From Anaerolineaceae bacterium (GTDB lineage: Bacteria > Chloroflexota > Anaerolineae > Anaerolineales > Anaerolineaceae): DNA of 47,801 nucleotides. Below, piece by piece: positions 8,925 to 18,163 of this stretch. Positions within the stretch are counted from its first letter, which is position 1. Each line of letters begins with the position of its first letter. The stretch lies in contig DAONEZ010000001.1 of NCBI GenBank assembly GCA_035403345.1, positions 1 through 47,801 on the forward strand, read 5' to 3'. The translations under genes and the position numbers were made by a program. Below the pieces are notes generated by a model. The model saw only the letters and a program-made list of their open reading frames with translations, was not told the DNA's origin and did not search any database.

Positions 8925-10040
8925 ATGCCAAAAACCAACCCCATTGTGGATGCCTACAGGGCCGAACGCGCCAGCGCACTGCTCTACGAGACCCTGGCGG
9001 ACATAGAAAAAGACACGCGTATCGCCGAGGTATACCGGCGCATCGCCAAAACCGAGATCAAGCACGCTGAGAAATGGGTGCACCAGGCTAAGGACGCCGG
9101 CCTGGTGCTCGAGGAGTACAAACCCGACCTTCGTACACGCATGCTCATCCGCCTGGGCAAGCGTTTTGGCCCGTCCATGATCCTGCCTGCCATGCAGGGC
9201 ATGGAAAAAAGCGGCTCACGGGCTTACCAGAAGATGGAAAATGCCATGGGCATGAGCGCAGAGGAAAGCTCGCATGACCGCCTGTTGACCCAGATCACCT
9301 CCACGGTGCGCGGCGGGATCGCCGGCGGCGTGCTGGCGCAGTTGGAAGGACGCCACCGCTCTGCGGGCGGTAATGCCCTGCGCGCGGCCGTGCTGGGCGC
9401 CAACGACGGGCTGGTCTCCAACCTGAGCCTTGTGATGGGCGTGGCAGGGGCCACCCTGGCCGGTAAAGAAGTACTCATCGCTGGCGTGGCGGGGTTGCTG
9501 GCAGGCGCCATCTCCATGGCACTGGGCGAGTGGCTCTCGGTCACCTCTTCACGCGAACTCTACACCCACCAGGTGGCTACTGAAAAACAGGAGATCGAGA
9601 CCGCTCCGGAAGAAGAAGCGGAAGAGCTGGCACTTATTTATGAATCGCGCGGTCTCACTCGTGAGAATGCGCGCACGCTTGCTAACCAGATCCTGTCCAA
9701 CAAGGACTCCGCGTTGGACACCCTGGCGCGCGAAGAATTGGGCATCGACCCGGACGAACTGGGCGGATCCGCCTGGGAGGCAGCCATTACATCCTTCATT
9801 CTCTTCGCCCTGGGAGCCATCCTGCCGGTAGCGCCCTTCTTCTTCGCCTCCGGCATGGTAGCTGTGTTCTGGAGCATCGGGCTGAGCGTGCTTGGCTTGT
9901 TCGCGCTGGGCGCAGTCATCACGTTATTCACCGGACGCGGCTTGTTGTATTCCGGCTTGCGCATGGTGCTGTTCGGGCTGTTGGCTGCTGGGGTCACCTT
10001 TGGCATCGGGCGACTGATTGGGGTCAGTATCAGTGGATAG
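8925..10040 (+). CDS. VIT1/CCC1-family iron/manganese transporter with N-terminal ferritin-like (erythrin) domain
   Basis: 371 aa. N-terminal four-helix-type segment (AERASALLYETLA...EIKHAEKW). C-terminal VIT1 motifs LRAAVLGANDGLVSNLSLVMGVAG and ISMALGEWLSV, plus TM helices. Confidence 0.85.
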   Translation: MPKTNPIVDAYRAERASALLYETLADIEKDTRIAEVYRRIAKTEIKHAEKWVHQAKDAGLVLEEYKPDLRTRMLIRLGKRFGPSMILPAMQGMEKSGSRAYQKMENAMGMSAEESSHDRLLTQITSTVRGGIAGGVLAQLEGRHRSAGGNALRAAVLGANDGLVSNLSLVMGVAGATLAGKEVLIAGVAGLLAGAISMALGEWLSVTSSRELYTHQVATEKQEIETAPEEEAEELALIYESRGLTRENARTLANQILSNKDSALDTLAREELGIDPDELGGSAWEAAITSFILFALGAILPVAPFFFASGMVAVFWSIGLSVLGLFALGAVITLFTGRGLLYSGLRMVLFGLLAAGVTFGIGRLIGVSISG

Positions 10041-10107
10041 GAAATAAATAACAAAAATAATGGCTACGCGAAATGCTTAGAATCAATATTTCCAGGTAAG
10101 AGAACAA

Positions 10108-10133
10108 TAAACCGGCAGAAGTTCTGCCGGTTT
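10108..10133. terminator. bidirectional hairpin between convergent VIT1 and bfr genes
   Basis: AAACCGGCAGAA-g-TTCTGCCGGTTT, flanked by A/T on both sides. Confidence 0.7.
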
Positions 10134-10150
10134 ATGCTTATTTCGGAAAT

Positions 10151-10618
10151 TTACCCGATCTGCTCGACCAGGTAGTTCTGGATGCCCATTTGCTCGATCT
10201 GGTCCAACTGGGTTTCGATCCAGTCGATATGTGCTTCCTCGTCAGCCAGTATGTCTTCCAGCATCTCGCGCGAACCGTTATCAGCTTCTTCGGTGCACAG
10301 CTTGATCGCGCTATTGTAGGCCGCAATGGCACCCTCTTCAGCGGCATGGTCGCTGGTCAGCATGCCCTCCACTTTTGGGGCGATGTGCATCTTGTTCAGG
10401 TTGCTTACGACCGGCAGCCCTTCCAGGAACAGGATGCGCCCGATGTGCTTTTCAGCATGTTTCATCTCGTCGATGGCGCGCTTCTCGATCTTTTCAGCCA
10501 GTTCGTTGTAACCCCAATCGGCGCACATTTCAGCATGCACCATGTACTGGCTGACAGCGGTGAGCTCATCCGCCAGCAGGAAATTGAGCATGTCGATCAC
10601 TTTTTGAGAGCCTTTCAT
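10151..10618 (-). CDS. bfr: bacterioferritin
   Basis: Track ORF trimmed to ATG 10618 ([31 protein letters not shown]...) with AAGGAGG RBS. About 155 aa. Ferroxidase ligand pattern E..EMKH..E..H and EEAHIDW. Confidence 0.9.
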
Positions 10619-10723
10619 TGAAACCTCCTTAATCTTTAACACCAGTATACCGATTTTTCGGCAAAAGGGCAAAAGAAAATGGCACCCATTCCAACCGGTG
10701 CCATCCACTTTGTGTGAATCCAG

Positions 10724-11650
10724 TTATTGTCTTCCGTGCGTCAGGCGCGGATCGAGCGCGTCGCGCAAGCCGTCGCCCAGCAGGTTGAAGCCCAGCACGG
10801 TGAGCATAATGGCGATGCCCGGGAAAATGACCAAGTGGGGCGCGCTGAAGATGCTGTTCTTTTCCTCGCCCAGCATCAGTCCCCACTCCGGTCGCGGCGG
10901 CTCGGCGCCCAGCCCCAGGAAGGATAGCGCGGCGGCGTCCAGGATGGCGGTGGCAATGCCCAGGGTGCCCTGCACAATGAGCGGGGTGATGGCATTGGGC
11001 AGGATGCGCTGGAACAGCAGGCGCATGGGCGATGCACCCAGGGCGCGCGCGGCCTGTACGTAGTCCAACTCCTTGACCGACAGCACGGTGGAGCGCACCA
11101 GCCTTGCAAAGCGCGGGATGGAGACGATGCCGATAGCCAGCAGGGCGTTGATCAGCCCCGTACCCAGCACCGAAACGATGGCGATGGCCAGCAGCAGGCT
11201 GGGGAACGCCATCAGCACGTCCATCAGGCGCATCAGGATGTTATCCACCGCCCCTCCGGCATATGCGGCAATCGCTCCAATCAGCGTGCCGATCAGGATG
11301 GCAAACACCATGGTCGCCAGGCCAATTTGCAGCGACAGGCGCGAACCATAAATGACGCGCGAGAACAGGTCACGGCTGTTGCCGTCAATGCCGAACAAAT
11401 GCTGCTGCTCCTCTTTCGGGCAGCCCAGCAGGTGTACACAGGGGGTATCCCGCCGCTTCTGGTCCTTGAGCAGTTGCGTGGGGTCATAAGGCGCGATCAC
11501 CGGCGCGAAGATGGCGATGAGCACCAGCAAGCCCAGGATGATGATGCCGGCTTTGCCGGAACTATGCCGCCAGAGGTGGCGCATAGCCTCCCGAAACGGT
11601 GAGCGGCGCTTACTGGTAAATTCTTTGGGGAATTCGGTCACGTTTTGCAT
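10724..11650 (-). CDS. ABC peptide/nickel-type transporter permease (DppC/OppC-like)
   Basis: Trimmed to ATG 11650 (GGGAGG RBS, 10 nt after the upstream stop). BPD_transp_1-type EAA loop region ARALGASPMRLLFQRILPN. Confidence 0.9.
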   Translation of the reverse strand: MQNVTEFPKEFTSKRRSPFREAMRHLWRHSSGKAGIIILGLLVLIAIFAPVIAPYDPTQLLKDQKRRDTPCVHLLGCPKEEQQHLFGIDGNSRDLFSRVIYGSRLSLQIGLATMVFAILIGTLIGAIAAYAGGAVDNILMRLMDVLMAFPSLLLAIAIVSVLGTGLINALLAIGIVSIPRFARLVRSTVLSVKELDYVQAARALGASPMRLLFQRILPNAITPLIVQGTLGIATAILDAAALSFLGLGAEPPRPEWGLMLGEEKNSIFSAPHLVIFPGIAIMLTVLGFNLLGDGLRDALDPRLTHGRQ

Positions 11651-11660
11651 GCTGCCTCCC

Positions 11661-12737
11661 CTAGTCCACGCGTATGCGCGGGTCAAGATACGCATACGAT
11701 AGGTCCACGATAAGATTGACGAATACGAAGATGAGGGCGATCACCAGGGTGAAGCCCTGCACAACCGGGTAATCACGTGCCAGGATGGCCGACACGAGTG
11801 CGGTGCCCATTCCCGGCAGGGTGAACACGGTCTCGGTAAGCACCGCGCCTGATAGCAGGCTGCCGGTCTCGATGCCAATAATGGTAACGATGGGGATCAT
11901 GGCGTTGCGCATGGCGTGTTTACGGATCACGCGGCTTTCCTGCATGCCCTTGGCACGCGCCGTGCGGATGTAATCCAGTCCCACCACTTCCAGCAGGCTG
12001 GAGCGCGTCATGCGCGCGATGATGGACATTGGTATGGTGCCCACGGCTACAGCCGGCAGGATCAGGTGCTTGAGTGAATCCCAGAACACCTTCCAGTCAC
12101 CGGTAATGATCACGTTCACCAGAACGGTATTGGACATCAGGTCAATAATAAACTTTTTGAATCCGGTCAGGTTGGTCAGACCCCAGACCTCATCCAGGTT
12201 CTGTAAGGCCACCCCAGCGGTGAAGCGCGCAGAGGGTGGTAGAACAAACGGCGTGCCTTTGAGCTCCAGGGCGAAGACATACGCCAGGAGCAAGCCCAGC
12301 CAGAAAACCGGCATGGACACACCGATATTGGCAATGATCATAGTGATAGTATCCAGGATGGTGTTGCGTTTGAGGGCGGAGATCACCCCCAGGAGCACAC
12401 CAACTGTGGTAGAGAACAGCATGGCGCTCATGGTCAATTCCATGGTCAGCGGCAGGCGTTCCGAAAGCAGGTCCATCACCGGACGGGTGAAGCGGATGGA
12501 ATCCCCCAAGTCTAATTTAGCCAGGTTGCCCAGGTAGCGCCCGAATTGTACGAAAATATTGTCATTCAAACCATAACGCTCCAGGAAGAGCGCACATTTC
12601 GCTGGAGTAGCGCGTTCCCCAAGCATGGTCACGCAAGGGTCACCCGGGATGAGGCGCACGATAATGAACGTCACCAGGATGACACCCAACAAGACAGGCA
12701 GTAATAATAAGATGCGGCGGCCAATGAATTGGGTCAT
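11661..12737 (-). CDS. ABC peptide/nickel-type transporter permease (DppB/OppB-like)
   Basis: 358 aa. Typical N-terminus MTQFIGRRILLLLPVLLGVILVTFIIVRLIPGDP. EAA region YIRTARAKGMQESRVIRKHAMRNA. Confidence 0.9.
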   Translation of the reverse strand: MTQFIGRRILLLLPVLLGVILVTFIIVRLIPGDPCVTMLGERATPAKCALFLERYGLNDNIFVQFGRYLGNLAKLDLGDSIRFTRPVMDLLSERLPLTMELTMSAMLFSTTVGVLLGVISALKRNTILDTITMIIANIGVSMPVFWLGLLLAYVFALELKGTPFVLPPSARFTAGVALQNLDEVWGLTNLTGFKKFIIDLMSNTVLVNVIITGDWKVFWDSLKHLILPAVAVGTIPMSIIARMTRSSLLEVVGLDYIRTARAKGMQESRVIRKHAMRNAMIPIVTIIGIETGSLLSGAVLTETVFTLPGMGTALVSAILARDYPVVQGFTLVIALIFVFVNLIVDLSYAYLDPRIRVD

Positions 12738-12808
12738 TTATCTTCTCTCAAGATCAATTATCCGGATGGGGTTGGGGATCCAACCCCATCCGTGATTTAG
12801 AACAGGTA

Positions 12809-14539
12809 TTACTCTACAGTGTAGCCTGCTTCGATGAGCAGTTCCTTGGCTTTTTCAGGATTGAACTCAAGCCAGGGGATGTTGGGGCTTGCGCCGGGGG
12901 TCACGAAGGCCGGCACGAAGCTATCGGAAACGGTTGAACCGATCGCATAGTACTGGTCAACGATCCTTTGGCGGTCGATCGCGTAGGCAATGGCCTGGCG
13001 GACCAACGGATTGTCGAACGGAGCAATGGTGTTGTTGAATCCGATGTAGAAGATGTTGAAGCCGAGGCGGGGATACAACTTGAGGTTGGCATCCGCTTCG
13101 ATCCCGGCGATGTCATCCGGACCCGGATTGTCAATGCCATTCACAGTGCCGGCCTGGAGTTCAAGCACGCGCTGTGCGGATTGTTCAGACCAGCGGAAGA
13201 TGAGCTTCTGGGTCTTGGCTTTCTCGCCCCAGTAGTTGGGGTTGGCTTCGTAAACAACGCTGTCGCCGCGATTCCATTCTTTCACGATGTAGGGACCGGT
13301 GCCATTGGGGGCATCGCTCATCCTAACGGAATCGCCGCTGTTGGCATCCAGGTAATCCTTATCCTGGATGGCGAACACGGAGAAGGCCACCTTGGAGGCG
13401 AAGGCAGGATCAGCATAGCACAGGGTGAATTTCACGGTTGAGGCATCCACCGCTTCGATGGATTTGAACTCGCCGCCGTACTCGCAATCCGGTGCGGTCA
13501 GGGAGAGCAGTCCACCGTTATCAACCAGGGTGGCGACACTGGATTCGGCATTGAGGAAGGAGCCAAAGAAAGCACCGAAGTACTCAAAGCTGCCGGTGCG
13601 GCCGACATGATTTGGGCTGGCGGCATCCCAGTAGGAGGCGAAAGTAGCCACTACATCGTTGACATCGAAGTCAGCGCCATTGTGGAACTTGACGCCCTGG
13701 CGGATCTTGAAGGTGTACTCTGTCAGGTCCGCATTGGGTGCATAGCTCTCAGCCAGGCTGGGAACAACATCTGTTCCGCCGATGCTGAAGCCAAGCAGCG
13801 CTTCGTAGACCTGCTCGCAAGCGCGCAAGGTCTCGCCATCGGTCTCGTCAGAGCACCACAGGGCAGCAGGCTCGCCGTTCTGCATCCAGACGAACTGGTC
13901 GGTGCCGTTGCTCATCACGCTGAAGTTCTCATTGCCCAGCGGGCTTGAGTGAGCACCTTCCACGTTGGCCTGGTAAACGGTTGAGGAACCACCGTTGGCT
14001 ACCGGGATCATCATGAGGTAGTCTTTGAGCATCTGGTTGACGGTGTCATAATGGCCCTGGCGTGCAGCCGGGTCGGAGAGTTTGGCGGCAGCATTGATCT
14101 CAGCCACCATGTCCTCATACAGATTGCCAAACTGCAGGTTGTTGGCGTTGGCGAAGTGGTAATCGTAGAAGTTGGTCGCATCGGGATAGTCAGCGTTCCA
14201 GCCCAACAGGTAGAAACCCTTCTCTCCGGCGGCGGTGGCGTCAATGAACGCAGCGGATTCCATTTCTTCCAGCGTTACATCGATGCCGACTTCCTTCAAT
14301 TGTGCCTGGATTTCCTGGGCAACTTTGTCAGGTGAAGGCAGGTAAGCGCGATCCACCACGCGGAAGGACAGGGTGATCTTCAGCGGGTTGGAGGCAACAG
14401 GCGCTTCGGTGGCTACCGGGGCTTCCGTAACAACGGGAGCTTCCGTGGCAACCGGGGCTTCGGTGGCTTTGGCGCAGGCCGTGAGTGCCATGGCTGCGAC
14501 CAAAACGATACTTAGAACGAACAATAGTCGACGTTTCAT
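12809..14539 (-). CDS. family-5 (peptide/nickel) ABC substrate-binding lipoprotein, apparently circularly permuted
   Basis: Trimmed to ATG 14539 (AAGGAGAA RBS). Signal peptide plus lipobox LTAC. 4x (A/V)TEAPV linker. Canonical C-terminal lobe segment (LKITLSF...GWNADYPDATNF...) comes before the canonical N-terminal segment (DQFVWMQNGEPAALW...GPYIVKEW...NPEKAKELLIEAGYTVE-stop). Confidence 0.85.
   Translation of the reverse strand: MKRRLLFVLSIVLVAAMALTACAKATEAPVATEAPVVTEAPVATEAPVASNPLKITLSFRVVDRAYLPSPDKVAQEIQAQLKEVGIDVTLEEMESAAFIDATAAGEKGFYLLGWNADYPDATNFYDYHFANANNLQFGNLYEDMVAEINAAAKLSDPAARQGHYDTVNQMLKDYLMMIPVANGGSSTVYQANVEGAHSSPLGNENFSVMSNGTDQFVWMQNGEPAALWCSDETDGETLRACEQVYEALLGFSIGGTDVVPSLAESYAPNADLTEYTFKIRQGVKFHNGADFDVNDVVATFASYWDAASPNHVGRTGSFEYFGAFFGSFLNAESSVATLVDNGGLLSLTAPDCEYGGEFKSIEAVDASTVKFTLCYADPAFASKVAFSVFAIQDKDYLDANSGDSVRMSDAPNGTGPYIVKEWNRGDSVVYEANPNYWGEKAKTQKLIFRWSEQSAQRVLELQAGTVNGIDNPGPDDIAGIEADANLKLYPRLGFNIFYIGFNNTIAPFDNPLVRQAIAYAIDRQRIVDQYYAIGSTVSDSFVPAFVTPGASPNIPWLEFNPEKAKELLIEAGYTVE
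14396..14467 (-). repeat. in-frame 18-nt tandem repeat (4x) encoding the (A/V)TEAPV linker
   Basis: ATEAPVATEAPVVTEAPVATEAPV directly after the lipobox Cys. Confidence 0.85.
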
Positions 14540-14680
14540 TTCTTTTCTCCTTGTTGATTGATTGGAACCGTCCGGGTTTCGCCTTTCGAAACCCATTTCT
14601 GCGAACTGATTTGCCTTAGTAATGTGACCACCTCCTTTGTACGAACAGGATCATCTACTCAACAATCGAACGTCTTTCGA

Positions 14681-15673
14681 TCAGGCTAACCAACAGGCAA
14701 CAGAATGCCCGGGAGTCTTCTCAATAAATGCGGGCTCCTCCACCGAACACTGCGCCACGGCAATGGGGCAGCGCGGGTGAAAGCGGCAGCCTTTGGGCGG
14801 GTTAACCGGGTTGGGCACGTCGCCCTTGAGGATGGTACGCTGGCGCTTGAGCCGCGGATCGGGGATGGGGATGGCGGACATGAGCGCGCGGGTGTAGGGG
14901 TGCAGCGGGTTGCGGAAGAGTTCATCGCGGTCGGTCAGCTCCACCATCTTACCCAGGTACATCACCGCCACGCGGTTGGAGATGTGCTCCACCACGCCCA
15001 GGTTGTGGGCAATGAAGAGATAGGTCAGGCCCAGGTCCTTCTGCAGGTCTTTGAGGATGTTGAGCACCTGCGACTGGATGGACACGTCCAGGGCGGAAAC
15101 GGGTTCGTCACAAACGATGAAACGCGGGTTCAATGCCAGTGCGCGCGCTATGCCGATGCGCTGGCGCTGACCGCCGGAGAATTCGTGCGGGTAGCGGCGG
15201 GCATGGTATTCCTCCAACCCCACCTTCTTGAGCATATCAATTACCATGCGGTAACGGTCCTTGCGGTTGCCCACGCTGTGGATATCCAGTCCTTCCATCA
15301 CCGAGTCGCCAATTTGGACGCGCGGGTCCAGCGAAGCATAGGGATCCTGGAAGATGATCTGCATGTCCTTACGTACGGCTTTGAGTTCCTTGCCGCTTAG
15401 CTTGAGCACGTCCTTGCCGTCAAATTGGACAGAACCAGCGGTGGGTTCCGTCAGGCGCAGCACGGTGCGTCCCACGGTGGTCTTACCGCAGCCGGACTCC
15501 CCTACCAGTCCCAGCGTTTCCCCATCGCGCACGGTGAAACTCACGTCATCCACCGCCTGGACGTGCGCAGAAACGCGCTGCAGGATGCCGGTGCGCACCT
15601 CGTAGTATTTCTTGAGGTTCTTAACGACCATCAAGTCTTTTTGGGTGTTCCTGGAGGAAGCTGATTCAATCAT
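14681..15673 (-). CDS. ABC transporter ATP-binding protein (OppF/DppF-like)
   Basis: Walker [10 protein letters not shown], signature FSGGQRQR, Walker [14 protein letters not shown]-terminal oligopeptide-type extension. Confidence 0.9.
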
Positions 15674-15731: not shown

Positions 15732-16766
15732 TTAGACCTTTAGGGGAGCCTGGTGACCTTCGTAATCGGTGTAGAGCCAGCAGCGAACAGAGCGCGCGGA
15801 ACCGGCATCCACCAGTTGCGGCTCGTGCTTGTTGCAGATGTCCAACCCGTACTCCTGGCGCAGCTTGCAGCGCGGGGCAAAACGGCAGCCGGGCGGCAGG
15901 TCCACCAGGTTTGGCACCAGCCCGGGGATGACCTCCAGGCGGTCCACCACATTGCCAAGCACAGGGATGGAGCCGATCAGGCCCTGTGTGTAGGGGTGCA
16001 GCGGGCGCTCAAAGAGCTGCGCCACATCCGCGAATTCCACGATCTCGCCGGCGTACATCACCGCCACGCGGTCAGCCATCTCGGCGATGACGCCCAGGTC
16101 GTGCGTGATGAGGATGACAGCCGTGTTGGTTTTTGTGCGCAGCTCACGGATCAGGTCCAGGATCTGCGCCTGGATGGTGACATCCAGCGCTGTGGTGGGC
16201 TCGTCGGCGATCAACAGCGAAGGCGAGAGCGCCAGCGCCATGGCGATCATCACGCGCTGGGCCTGTCCACCGGACATCTCGTGCGGGTAAGCGAAGGCTT
16301 TTTGTTCAGGATTGGGGATGCCCACCTGGGTGAGCAGTTCAACGGCTTTCTTCCAGGCTTCCTTCTTTTTCATGCCCTTGTGCAGCATGAGCACCTCGGC
16401 CACCTGGTCGCCCACCCTGAAGACCGGGTTGAGGCTGGATTGCGGCTGCTGGAAGATCATGGAGATGCGGTCGCCGCGCATTTTGACCATCTCGGCATCT
16501 GAGAAATCGAGGATGTTCTTACCCTCGAAGAGGATCTCGCCACCGGTGATGCGCCCCGGAGGGCTGACCAGGCGCAGGATGGAGAAGGAGCTGACGCTCT
16601 TGCCGCAGCCAGACTCGCCTACCAGCCCGAGGACTTCGCCGCTCTTGACGGAAAAATCCACTCCGTCCACAGCTTTTACCACGCCGTCTTCGGTAAAGAA
16701 GTAGGTTTTCAGGTTACGAACTTCGAGCAGGGTCTTGCCTGGTTGTGCGGTCGTTCTGTCGCTCAT
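15732..16766 (-). CDS. ABC transporter ATP-binding protein (OppD/DppD-like)
   Basis: Walker [10 protein letters not shown], signature MSGGQAQR, Walker [13 protein letters not shown]. Confidence 0.9.
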
Positions 16767-17005: not shown

Positions 17006-17105
17006 GTGATTAGTAACCAGGGATTAGTGAATAGGGACTACCTGCTTAAGATATTAGGACTCCTGCGCCAAATCACTAATCACTATTCACCAATCACTAT
17101 ACACT
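17006..17105. repeat. imperfect inverted pair of AATCACT-type heptad tracts immediately upstream of the recombinase gene
   Basis: Left arm gtgattagtaaccagggattagtgaatag. Right arm has 5 tandem heptads: AATCACT AATCACT ATTCACC AATCACT ATACACT (17071..17105). GATTAGTGAATAG pairs with CTATTCACCAATC at 12 of 13 positions. Confidence 0.75.
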
Positions 17106-17128
17106 TCCTTCCGGTGTACAATCAAAAT

Positions 17129-18163
17129 ATGCCGCCTGACAAAGAGATCCAGCCCCTGCTGCCCGGAGACCTGGCGCGCCTGATCGGCGAGAGCGCCAAC
17201 CAGGCCGCCGCGCGCACGCGCTTCCAGGAGTACCGTTCGCGCCGCGCCGAGCACACGCTGCGACGGCAGGACGCTGACCTGGCGTTGTTCCACGAGTTCC
17301 TCGAGCTTGCCAACCTGCGCACGGGCGACCTGGCGCAGGACGCGGCTGCCTGGCGACCGGTGACCTGGGGCCTGGTGGAAGCATATGTGAAGTGGCAATT
17401 AAATGAAGGCTACGCGGTAAAAAGCATCAACGTACATCTTTCCACCATTAAAACCTATGCACGCCTGGCCATGCAGTCCGGCACGCTCATGCCGCAGGAA
17501 TACGCCCTGATCCACGCGGTGCAGGGCTACTCGTACCGCGAGCAGGTACGCATCGACCAAAAGCGCCCGGTGCAGCGCATCGGGCTGAAGAAATCCGCGC
17601 CTGTCAAGATCACCAGCGAACAGGCCGCGCAGCTCAAGACCCAGCCCGATACCCCCCAGGGACGGCGCGATGCCCTGCTGATGTGCCTGCTGCTGGAGCA
17701 TGGACTGCGCGTGGGCGAGGTGACGCGCCTGGACGTATCCAACGTGGACCTGGCCGAGCGCGCCTTGCGCTTCTTCCGCCCCAAGGTGAACAAGGAACAG
17801 GTGCACCACCTGACACGCGACACCCTAACCGCCATGACCGCCTACCGTGATTGCGGGGACATGCCCATCAGCGGGGCGCTGTTGCGGCGCAGTAAAAAGA
17901 ACGAAGAACTGGGCTCACCGGGCATGACAGAGCGCGCCGTGACGGCGCGCGTATGCCTGCTGGGCGAGCGCCTGGGCATCCTGGGGCTCAGCGCGCACGA
18001 CTGCCGCCACTTCTGGGCCACCTCCGCCGCGCGCGCCGGAACCGATCCTTTCGTGCTGCAGGAAGCCGGCGGCTGGTCCTCGCTGGCCATGCCGCGCCGC
18101 TACGTGGAAGATAACGAAGTGGCCAACGAGGGTCTCCGCCTGGAAAAACCAGCCCAGGACTGA
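17129..18163 (+). CDS. tyrosine recombinase / phage-integrase-family site-specific recombinase
   Basis: Trimmed to ATG 17129 (MPPDKEIQPLL...). N-terminal SAM-like domain. Catalytic signature GLRVGEV ... HDCRHFWAT ... GGWSS ... RRY. Confidence 0.85.
   Translation: MPPDKEIQPLLPGDLARLIGESANQAAARTRFQEYRSRRAEHTLRRQDADLALFHEFLELANLRTGDLAQDAAAWRPVTWGLVEAYVKWQLNEGYAVKSINVHLSTIKTYARLAMQSGTLMPQEYALIHAVQGYSYREQVRIDQKRPVQRIGLKKSAPVKITSEQAAQLKTQPDTPQGRRDALLMCLLLEHGLRVGEVTRLDVSNVDLAERALRFFRPKVNKEQVHHLTRDTLTAMTAYRDCGDMPISGALLRRSKKNEELGSPGMTERAVTARVCLLGERLGILGLSAHDCRHFWATSAARAGTDPFVLQEAGGWSSLAMPRRYVEDNEVANEGLRLEKPAQD

Follow-up and report, generated by a model that had tools for sequence, protein, structure and literature searches.

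A circularly permuted and probably twice-rotated Dpp-type substrate-binding lipoprotein from uncultured Anaerolineaceae

We analyzed a stretch of 47,801 nucleotides (positions 1 to 47,801 of contig DAONEZ010000001.1, assembly GCA_035403345.1; hereafter the window) from an uncultured Anaerolineaceae bacterium of activated sludge or wastewater. The window contains an operon in the order dppD-dppF-SBP-dppB-dppC, in which the middle gene encodes a family-5 substrate-binding protein (SBP) of an ATP-binding cassette (ABC) transporter (Table 1). A sequence-only reading of this DNA had described the operon as normal and the SBP as a circularly permuted lipoprotein. The Pfam domains of the neighbours and a GGAG ribosome-binding site agree with the first description, and the alignments given below agree with the second. 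The N-terminus of the SBP appears to be that of a bacterial lipoprotein, since MKRR, a hydrophobic stretch and the lipobox LTAC are followed by a Pro/Thr-rich tether that is disordered in the model. An 18-nt tandem repeat of 4.2 copies (14393-14467; Tandem Repeats Finder, TRF) codes for this tether. The reading frame extends from 12809 to 14596 on the reverse strand, and the Met at 14539 (MKRR...), where homologues also begin, is taken as the start. The 19 codons upstream (14540-14596, MGFERRNPDGSNQSTRRKE-) are open and not used by homologues; automatic callers could over-extend the gene into them. The length of the tether varies within the population, as a contig from wastewater run X7 has one extra 18-nt unit.

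The SBP consists of the same structural elements as its homologues in a rotated order, as seen in Protein Data Bank (PDB) alignments, relatives and models. We divided the family into segments A, B and C, corresponding to residues ~24-120, ~125-342 and ~353-498 of HbpA, respectively; the canonical order is A-B-C. Pfam SBP_bac_5 (PF00496) matched the window protein with 291.5 bits (cut-off 32.4, E=1.3e-86) in two stretches. The match was not colinear: residues 258-574 fell on profile positions 2-279 of 368, and the remainder of the profile was matched by the N-terminal part of the protein. A phmmer alignment with HbpA/GbpA (3m8u) gave the same picture, with residues 235-324 on 24-120, 357-573 on 125-342 and 60-202 on 353-498, and E. 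coli DppA showed the same swapped pattern. Namely, residues 60-202 are the canonical C-terminal third and residues 235-573 the canonical N-terminal two thirds. Segment C contains the second part of lobe 2, hinge 2 and the last strand of lobe 1, and segment A contains the first strand of domain I and the start of domain II. The old termini lie nearly end to end: F216 corresponds to residue 31 of the DppA precursor (the third mature residue) and S207 to residue 530 of 535. In the window protein, a family-5/cluster-C SBP, the circular permutation is real, and the chain order is C-A-B. Thus the sequence-only reading was right about the signal peptide, lipobox and tether, about the canonical domain order and about the two swapped matches to the Pfam profile, and the NGT linker by which it joined the old termini is at most three residues long in the DppA alignment.

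Table 1. Coordinates of the features discussed here, with the Pfam cut points that tell the chain orders apart
Feature	Position	Strand	Description	Basis
Permuted family-5 substrate-binding lipoprotein, coding sequence	12809..14539	-	576 aa; signal-tether-C-A-linker-B	Open reading frame, Pfam, swapped alignments
Ribosome-binding site	14547..14550	-	GGAG; 7-nt spacer to ATG at 14539	Read in sequence
Signal peptide and lipobox	14474..14539	-	aa 1-22; LTAC; MKRRLLFVLSIVLVAAMALTAC	Sequence
Pro/Thr/Ala/Glu-rich tether	14393..14473	-	aa 23-49; 4x (A/V)TEAPV	TRF; predicted local distance difference test (pLDDT) <50 at residues 21-47
Segment C	13904..14392	-	aa 50-212; canonical C-terminal third (HbpA ~353-498)	Alignments
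NGT	13901..13909	-	aa 211-213; fusion point of ancestral C- and N-termini	Alignment to 8z1y_F
Segment A	13547..13903	-	aa 213-331; canonical N-terminal ~100 residues (HbpA ~24-120)	Alignments
Re-joined A-B linker	13508..13546	-	aa 332-344; ESSVATLVDNGGL	Junction comparison, model strands
Segment B1 (X)	13016..13507	-	aa 345-508; rest of domain II, domain I, hinge-crossing strand 1	
Segment B2 (Y)	12812..13015	-	aa 509-576; first part of lobe 2	
DppD-like ATPase	15732..16766	-	ABC_tran + oligo_HPY	Pfam
DppF-like ATPase	14681..15673	-	ABC_tran + oligo_HPY	Pfam
DppB-like permease	11661..12737	-	BPD_transp_1_N/BPD_transp_1; Glu41-Arg42 of scoop loop kept (MLGERATP)	Pfam
DppC-like permease	10724..11695	-	OppC_N + BPD_transp_1	Pfam
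Intercistronic GC-rich hairpin	12765..12790	-	Between SBP stop (12809) and dppB start (12737)	
Bacterioferritin gene	10151-10621	-	Directly after dppC	
Terminator-like hairpin	10107-10135			
VIT1-family iron-transporter gene	8925-10040	+	Convergent; ferritin-like N-terminal domain	
Tyrosine recombinase gene	17006-18163	+	Divergent, upstream of operon; Phage_integrase	
Third-type loci	L033:5824-7551; L035:5899-7557		Anaerolineae metagenome-assembled genomes; proteins P0270-P0286	
Cut point, window protein (C-A-B)	aa 258-574		Profile positions 2-279	Pfam
Cut point, P0235 (C-A-B)	aa 286-579		Profile positions 1-282	Pfam
Cut point, P0065 (B-C-A)	aa 59-366		Profile positions 55-366	Pfam
Cut point, P0270 (third type)	aa 310-552		Profile positions 2-212	Pfam

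The permuted order is not confined to the window. Orthologues with the same permutation, which the sequence-only reading had named as a check, were found in number: 68 of the 120 best homologue clusters (clustered at 90% identity), drawn from NCBI, ENA, JGI and Logan, have the C-A-B order at full length with 73-97% identity. The order also occurs, within the same operon, in about 28 GTDB species genomes, all of them metagenome-assembled genomes (MAGs) of uncultured Anaerolineaceae; chance does not explain this. About 9 studies of wastewater, sludge or sediment also yielded the locus, in at least 20 runs; this evidence consists of contigs, in which local depth is not visible. Positions 12500-14900 are also covered without joints by an independent 33.7-kb contig, which differs by 6 substitutions and has no indels. 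Mis-assembly, including a collapsed duplication, is ruled out by the species genomes, the many runs and the spanning contig. It had been proposed to check the junction by mapping reads at 13990-14010; that check's aim, the exclusion of mis-assembly, was reached, but the NGT junction lies about 90 nt away from these positions. The ratio of nonsynonymous to synonymous substitutions (dN/dS) was ~0.12 for the mature protein against 26 orthologues (dN 0.14, dS ~1.2, the latter near saturation). By junction, it was ~0.14 at C-A and ~0.25, that is relaxed, in the A-B linker, and purifying selection extends over all segments and junctions. Metatranscriptomes contained 10-34% of the sequence words of the gene. 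In the two cleanest RNA-Seq runs, contigs covered only the SBP gene and the bacterioferritin gene, and some of them cross the C-A junction. The gene is expressed and selectively constrained. A pseudogene or a non-functional fusion is ruled out by dN/dS and RNA, and the earlier statement that the gene is probably functional holds, as the ligand residues are also conserved.

The relatives of the window protein give its history. The remaining 52 of the 120 best clusters have a second permuted order, signal-tether-B-C-A, and the closest of these proteins are 73-85% identical to the window protein. In one of them, P0065, the 282 aa of C-A are 83% identical and the 229 aa of B 73% identical to the window protein, and the signal peptide and tether (64% identity) are homologous as well. 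The fused C-A junction, with the motif S-N-G-x-D-x-FVWMQNGEP, is common to the B-C-A proteins. Their locus has the order dppD-dppF-SBP-dppB-dppC-bacterioferritin, as in the window. Because they share this locus, the B-C-A sisters are positional orthologues. We also searched 1.84 billion representatives clustered at 50% identity and classified the best 150 matches. Among these 150 representatives, 95 were full-length B-C-A proteins with identities from 61% down to ~35%, in addition to fragments, 14 were canonical A-B-C proteins, all at or below ~35%, and the C-A-B form of the window was a single cluster. B-C-A proteins occur in cultured Leptolinea (L. tardivitalis YMTK-2 and Leptolinea sp. HRD-7), Bellilinea, Longilinea, Thermoflexus and Anaerolinea thermophila; deeper clusters, where named, are again from Anaerolineaceae. 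These proteins are annotated merely as 'ABC transporter substrate-binding protein', and we found no description of them as permuted in the literature. Many B-C-A representatives have long N-terminal extensions (P0122-P0125, P0132, P0134, P0148 and P0182; 700-1390 aa). Some proteins of this set, which also includes P0385, P0389 and P0247, carry an SBP_bac_3 domain (PF00497) ahead of the family-5 domain.

We constructed neighbour-joining trees on Kimura distances from segments that were aligned separately and joined in the canonical order. The C-A-B proteins were nested inside the B-C-A proteins in 100 of 100 bootstraps, and C-A-B together with 12 B-C-A sisters formed a group in 93 of 100. Successive outgroups were all B-C-A (12, 25, 33, 52 ... 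128) before the first canonical sequence appeared. About 19 B-C-A proteins without the family Cys pair (see below) sit near the canonical sequences. Since C-A-B is nested in B-C-A, the fusion of the old termini would have been inherited and the present termini would come from a second rotation, B-C-A to C-A-B. This indicates that the NGT fusion is old, inherited from a large B-C-A family, and that the present termini arose by a later, recent rotation. Direct descent from a canonical gene is disfavoured by the nearest relatives and the tree. The unique junctions shared by the C-A-B proteins suggest that they have a single origin.

The junctions are consistent with this order of events. The C-A-B cut lies between ...PEKAKELLIEAGYTVE (stop) and (tether) SNPLKITLSF, a region that is continuous in B-C-A proteins (...AAGYDDANPLKITLSF). 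The A-B link of the window protein reads FLNA-ESSVA-TLVDNGGLLSLTAPD-CEYGG, in which TLVDNGGLLSLTAPDCEYGG follows FLNA-ESSVA. B-C-A proteins end with FLNAPAE (stop) and start after the tether with a strand such as SVFPVESNGLLSETAPDCEYGG (P0069) or AYEAMKVEAPDCEYGG (P0109). The link comprises 33 query residues against 5 in HbpA, and the linker has no counterpart in canonical proteins. In the model, the linker and the following LSLTAPD form a beta-hairpin (strands 338-341 and 344-348). Thus the A-B linker looks like the C-tail of a B-C-A protein, a tether remnant and an N-terminal strand joined together. Four C-A-B clusters (P0003, P0035, P0046 and P0050) have a longer linker, FLNAP-AAVGEGTPTPAPVAP-...NGLLS, with an extra Pro/Thr-rich stretch AVGEGTPTPAPVAP. 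These variants go back to a single origin (AVGEGTP...P) and are spread over both main C-A-B subclades; one tree places P0050 at the base. The extra stretch is suggestive of what a tail-tether-head fusion would leave behind.

From these data we propose two steps. In an old event, A-B-C would have changed to B-C-A and founded the large Anaerolineae family. In one Anaerolineaceae lineage, the orthologous gene in the same operon would then have been rotated again, from B-C-A to C-A-B. The second step would most likely have started with a head-to-tail duplication of the mature coding region that was fused in frame, after which the 5' copy of B and the 3' copy of C-A were lost. The leftover linker would consist of the old C-tail, a tether remnant and the old N-terminal strand. 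The termini of the B-C-A parent would be adjacent, because the cut lies in one loop. In the cluster-C fold the old termini are likewise close together, next to the sheet strands of domain I (PMC10924461). Duplication followed by truncation, which the sequence-only reading had put forward, is the most plausible mechanism for the second rotation, whereas a single such event on a canonical gene is not supported. The route can only be inferred, because neither intermediates nor remnants were found. Three single predicted proteins, P0160 (1202 aa), P0267 (1137 aa) and P0229 (2754 aa), contain at least two complete canonical A-B-C units in tandem; these would be fused duplicates of the kind that the permutation-by-duplication model needs.

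We also found other rotations in the family. A third order, signal-tether-B2-C-A-B1, starts with PLSYEKVRQAIAMGIDRQ... and ends with ...FYIGLNNNVQP (stop), so that segment B is split. It comprises 17 clusters and sits in an operon of the order SBP-dppB-dppC-dppD-dppF, and its nearest relatives are a different set of B-C-A proteins (64-78% identity). Its A-B1 link, FLE(E/K)PPATATxxKYExxxCDYGG, also resembles a tail, a tether remnant and a head. In a tree built jointly from 332 sequences, 60 of 60 bootstraps grouped the C-A-B proteins and the third type each with its own B-C-A relatives and apart from the other group. This suggests that the third type was derived independently from a different B-C-A subclade. 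When B is divided into X and Y, the counts are 13 AXYC, 234 XYCA, 17 YCAX and 68 CAXY, namely all four rotations. Furthermore, P0235, a lipoprotein with a poly-Glu tether, has the order C-A-B, and its cut falls in the lobe-2 loop that the window protein also uses. Its identity is 57-63% with the canonical P0247 and only 30% with the window protein. P0235 belongs to a 4-member cluster (with P0390-P0392) from JGI, ENA, Logan and NCBI, on contigs of up to 440 kb. P0235 looks like a convergent, independent permutation from a canonical lineage. Taken together, the comparisons support recurrence: all four rotations exist, a permuted parent appears to have been re-permuted independently at least twice, and the same lobe-2 loop seems to have been reused convergently.

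We next turned to predicted structures and to the position of the termini. The AlphaFold2 (AF2) model of the window protein has a pLDDT of 80.5 and a predicted template modelling score (pTM) of 0.77, and its C-A junction is ordered (pLDDT 83-91 at NGT). The model of the B-C-A orthologue P0065 (pLDDT 90, pTM 0.86) has the same secondary-structure elements, rotated. With Foldseek, which is a sequential aligner, the top matches of the C-A-B model were all cluster-C SBPs, over ~380 residues with TM at most 0.58; the P0065 model aligned over 386 residues with Gly-Leu-bound DppA at 2.2 Å (TM 0.71). No PDB entry with B-C-A or C-A-B topology was found by sequence or fold with either model, and the best canonical matches covered ~380-390 columns. 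In the cluster-C fold, lobe 1 is made of the N-terminal half and the last ~40 residues, and lobe 2 lies between them, connected by two hinge segments (PMC10924461). The termini of the window protein correspond to residues ~340/345 of mature DppA. For this mapping we used the DppA alignment and took lobe 2 of DppA to be residues 263-478, a range that goes back to the structure papers of 1995; a paper on MppA gives no domain boundaries. The termini then fall inside lobe 2, ~80 residues past hinge crossing 1, in a loop flanked by the helix PEKAKELLIEAG and by the strand with the carboxylate-binding Arg at its end. The sequence-only reading had placed them exactly at the hinge; this is ruled out by the DppA mapping and the published layout of lobes and hinges.

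The chain starts in the middle of lobe 2, goes through hinge 2 and the fused old termini into lobe 1, and returns through hinge 1 to end in lobe 2 with the helix PEKAKELLIEAGY of segment B2. Lobe crossings are still two according to the segment mapping. The termini of B-C-A proteins are in domain II of lobe 1, and those of the third type are in lobe 2, ~15 residues after hinge 1. Overall, the rotation would have moved the lipid tether from lobe 1 to lobe 2. Because the tether is long and disordered, its point of attachment should be of little consequence, and with ~27 flexible residues its relocation is probably nearly neutral. The protein also has two Cys pairs, C229/C241 (nt ~13817-13855; WCSDETDGETLRAC) and C352/C372 (nt ~13424-13486; CEYGG...FTLC). 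Their conservation is ~90% across all permuted types, and canonical relatives lack them. One pair is just past the fused old termini and the other is at the N-terminus of B-C-A proteins. They may form disulfides that stabilize the permuted connectivity.

Besides its topology, the protein resembles canonical SBPs. DppA (1DPP, 8Z1Y) and HbpA/GbpA (3M8U), which gave the best matches by sequence and fold, belong to the same Pfam family, have the same ligand Arg and Asp and DppBCDF-type partners, including the DppB scoop Glu-Arg, and have a two-lobe, three-domain fold that is also predicted for the window protein. In contrast, the window protein has the order C-A-B instead of A-B-C, its termini lie in lobe 2 and not, as in the canonical proteins, in domain I of lobe 1, and it has a beta-hairpin A-B linker of ~28 residues and two extra conserved Cys pairs. 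It shows ~26-31% identity to them, and it appears to be a lipoprotein of a monoderm rather than a periplasmic protein. R64 and D117, both in segment C, align to R383 and D436 of DppA. In DppA these residues form salt bridges with the carboxylate and amino group of the dipeptide, and with E41 and R42 of the DppB scoop loop (PMC12136057). Among C-A-B clusters the Arg was conserved in 66 of the 66 scored (2 gaps) and the Asp in 68 of 68; the corresponding numbers were 17 of 17 for both in the third type, 195 and 204 of 234 (~85-90%) in B-C-A proteins and 12 of 13 for both in canonical relatives. Because the ligand residues and the scoop pair are conserved and the partners are standard, the protein would act as a canonical Venus-flytrap receptor with the usual docking. 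These residues slightly favour a dipeptide-like ligand whose amino group and carboxylate are both free.

Between the SBP gene and dppB is a perfect hairpin, GAUGGGGUUGG-AUCC-CCAACCCCAUC, and the 74-nt spacer has a dG of -32 kcal/mol (z = -4.7). It may be an mRNA stabilizer or an attenuator that gives an excess of SBP. RNA-Seq contigs in two runs covered the SBP gene and not the permease genes. The bacterioferritin gene (bfr), often with the VIT1 gene, is syntenic in 12 of the 28 C-A-B loci, and bfr is also present in B-C-A sister loci. These neighbours may hint at a metal-related substrate, or the linkage may be coincidental. The tyrosine recombinase gene upstream of the operon has no evident link to the permutation.

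We consider it likely, with good confidence, that the window encodes a tethered Dpp-type SBP of ordinary fold and likely ordinary function, which is a second-generation permutant (A-B-C to B-C-A to C-A-B) of uncultured Anaerolineaceae. Several observations weigh against parts of this reading. The structures are predictions. The trees are distance-based neighbour-joining trees rather than maximum-likelihood trees, and their deep nodes, including a single origin of B-C-A, are unreliable. Strict monophyly of C-A-B was weak (56 of 100 and 27 of 60 bootstraps), as the long-linker protein P0050 floats at the base. The long-linker variants are not consistently basal, which makes them only a suggestive hint of polarity. 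No B-C-A-B-C-A fusion or partly truncated intermediate (XYCAX, CAXYC or XYCAXYCA) was found among 390 sequences, and the 47.8-kb window contained no leftover A, B or C fragments or SBP paralogues. As for the ligand, the NCBIfam DppA equivalog NF043070 gave 182.4 bits against a cut-off of 1005; no NCBIfam equivalog cut-off was reached, SapA, NikA, GsiB, OppA and CntA included. The bfr and VIT1 neighbours could also hint at a metal-chelate substrate.

The permutation itself might be adaptive. The shift of the tether, or the changed connectivity near the ligand Arg, would then alter docking, closure kinetics or specificity, perhaps for a metal-chelate or another non-peptide ligand linked to the iron-storage genes. 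The independent choice of the same lobe-2 loop in P0235, the lobe-2 termini of the third rotation and the synteny of bfr and VIT1 in 12 of 28 loci agree with this idea, and the authors of the work on TpMglB-2, a permuted SBP of Treponema pallidum, speculated on a link to tethering (PMC4990184). However, neither the ligand-contact residues nor the DppB scoop pair has changed, the point at which a long, disordered tether is attached should count for little, and the B-C-A sisters have the same bfr neighbour; therefore the context was not changed by the topology switch. For these reasons we regard an adaptive permutation as rather improbable. A broader version, in which the Dpp-type SBP family of Anaerolineae is a hotspot of serial permutation whose moves from lobe 1 to lobe 2 are adaptive by altering closure and docking, is unlikely.

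A canonical A-B-C gene might instead have been duplicated in tandem and cut directly to C-A-B, which would make the NGT fusion and the present termini equally old. The predicted tandem fusions P0160 and P0267 provide A-B-C-A-B-C proteins in the superfamily, and P0235 looks like just such a direct product, cut in the same loop. The window clade, however, lies deep inside the B-C-A diversity in every bootstrap. It shares the C-A junction, signal peptide, tether and operon with B-C-A proteins at 73-85% identity, whereas canonical proteins reach at most ~35%, and its A-B junction is not canonical, having an insert of ~28 residues that resembles the B-C-A termini. A single step is thus very improbable for the window protein. 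Still less credible is the reverse polarity, in which C-A-B is the older form and B-C-A proteins are derived from it. The similarity between linker and termini is symmetric and gives no direction alone, and the weak monophyly of C-A-B leaves some room for this view. But B-C-A proteins span identities from 85% to ~35% in several genera and make up 95 of the 150 representative clusters, whereas C-A-B of the window lineage is one 50%-identity cluster of uncultured Anaerolineaceae only. The successive outgroups of the C-A-B clade are all B-C-A, and the reverse direction needs many independent events at an identical cut. Finally, although the sequence is metagenome-derived and the tether repetitive, an assembly or gene-calling artefact (a collapsed tandem duplication, a chimeric contig or a tail-head fusion of SBP genes) is of negligible probability in view of the same order in ~28 species-level genomes and 68 clusters from four sources at 73-97% identity, the runs of several studies, the 33.7-kb contig through the locus without joints, and a single signal peptide, a single stop codon and purifying selection throughout.

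The preferred history, two successive rotations of a Dpp-type SBP, can be compared with known systems. The closest relatives, the B-C-A SBPs of Anaerolineae, are 65-85% identical per segment and have the C-A motif, Cys pairs, signal peptide, tether and operon in common with the window protein. Their cut is between A and B (domain II of lobe 1, profile positions ~54/55), while that of the window protein is between B and C (lobe 2, ~280). The founding natural permuted SBP is T. pallidum Tp0684 (TpMglB-2), 'Type Ic / Cluster Bc' (PMC4990184). It is likewise a lipid-tethered, naturally permuted ligand-binding protein that keeps binding and closure, and its homologues are mostly in organisms with tethered SBPs (PMC4990184). 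It differs in that it is a sugar-binding cluster B protein, in which three strands of the N-lobe moved to the C-terminus and created a fourth hinge crossover (PMC4990184). Its permuted part has almost no sequence similarity (13%) and an unclear origin, whereas the window protein shows similarity in all segments, a traceable history and two crossings. The window protein is not 'Cluster Bc', as its matches, by sequence and by fold alike, all fall in cluster C.

That proteins become circularly permuted through duplication is well known. In the classical families, among them the DNA methyltransferase classes, swaposins and transaldolases, rotations coexist via tandem duplication, fusion and truncation. 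In contrast to these, two of the rotations described here separate positional orthologues that are still ~75-85% identical; because of this identity, the event would be recent and its junctions readable. We found no permuted family-5/cluster-C SBP in the open-access literature, although absence there is no proof, and TpMglB-2, of cluster B, was the one described precedent of natural SBP permutation that we found; the permutants described here belong to the large peptide/nickel family 5. The unusual point is that one family shows every rotation, serial re-permutation, convergent use of one loop, and a recent event between positional orthologues whose junctions can still be read.

Annotations list such proteins as ordinary or hypothetical SBPs, and pipelines based on profiles or coverage will split, truncate or mis-cluster the permutants. 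The family marks three surface loops that tolerate new termini in a widely used biosensor scaffold. It lets one test whether connectivity and tether position affect the dynamics and docking of the Venus flytrap. In summary, the SBPs of this Anaerolineae family are close to a natural experiment for the permutation-by-duplication model and provide a series for studying how proteins are rewired.

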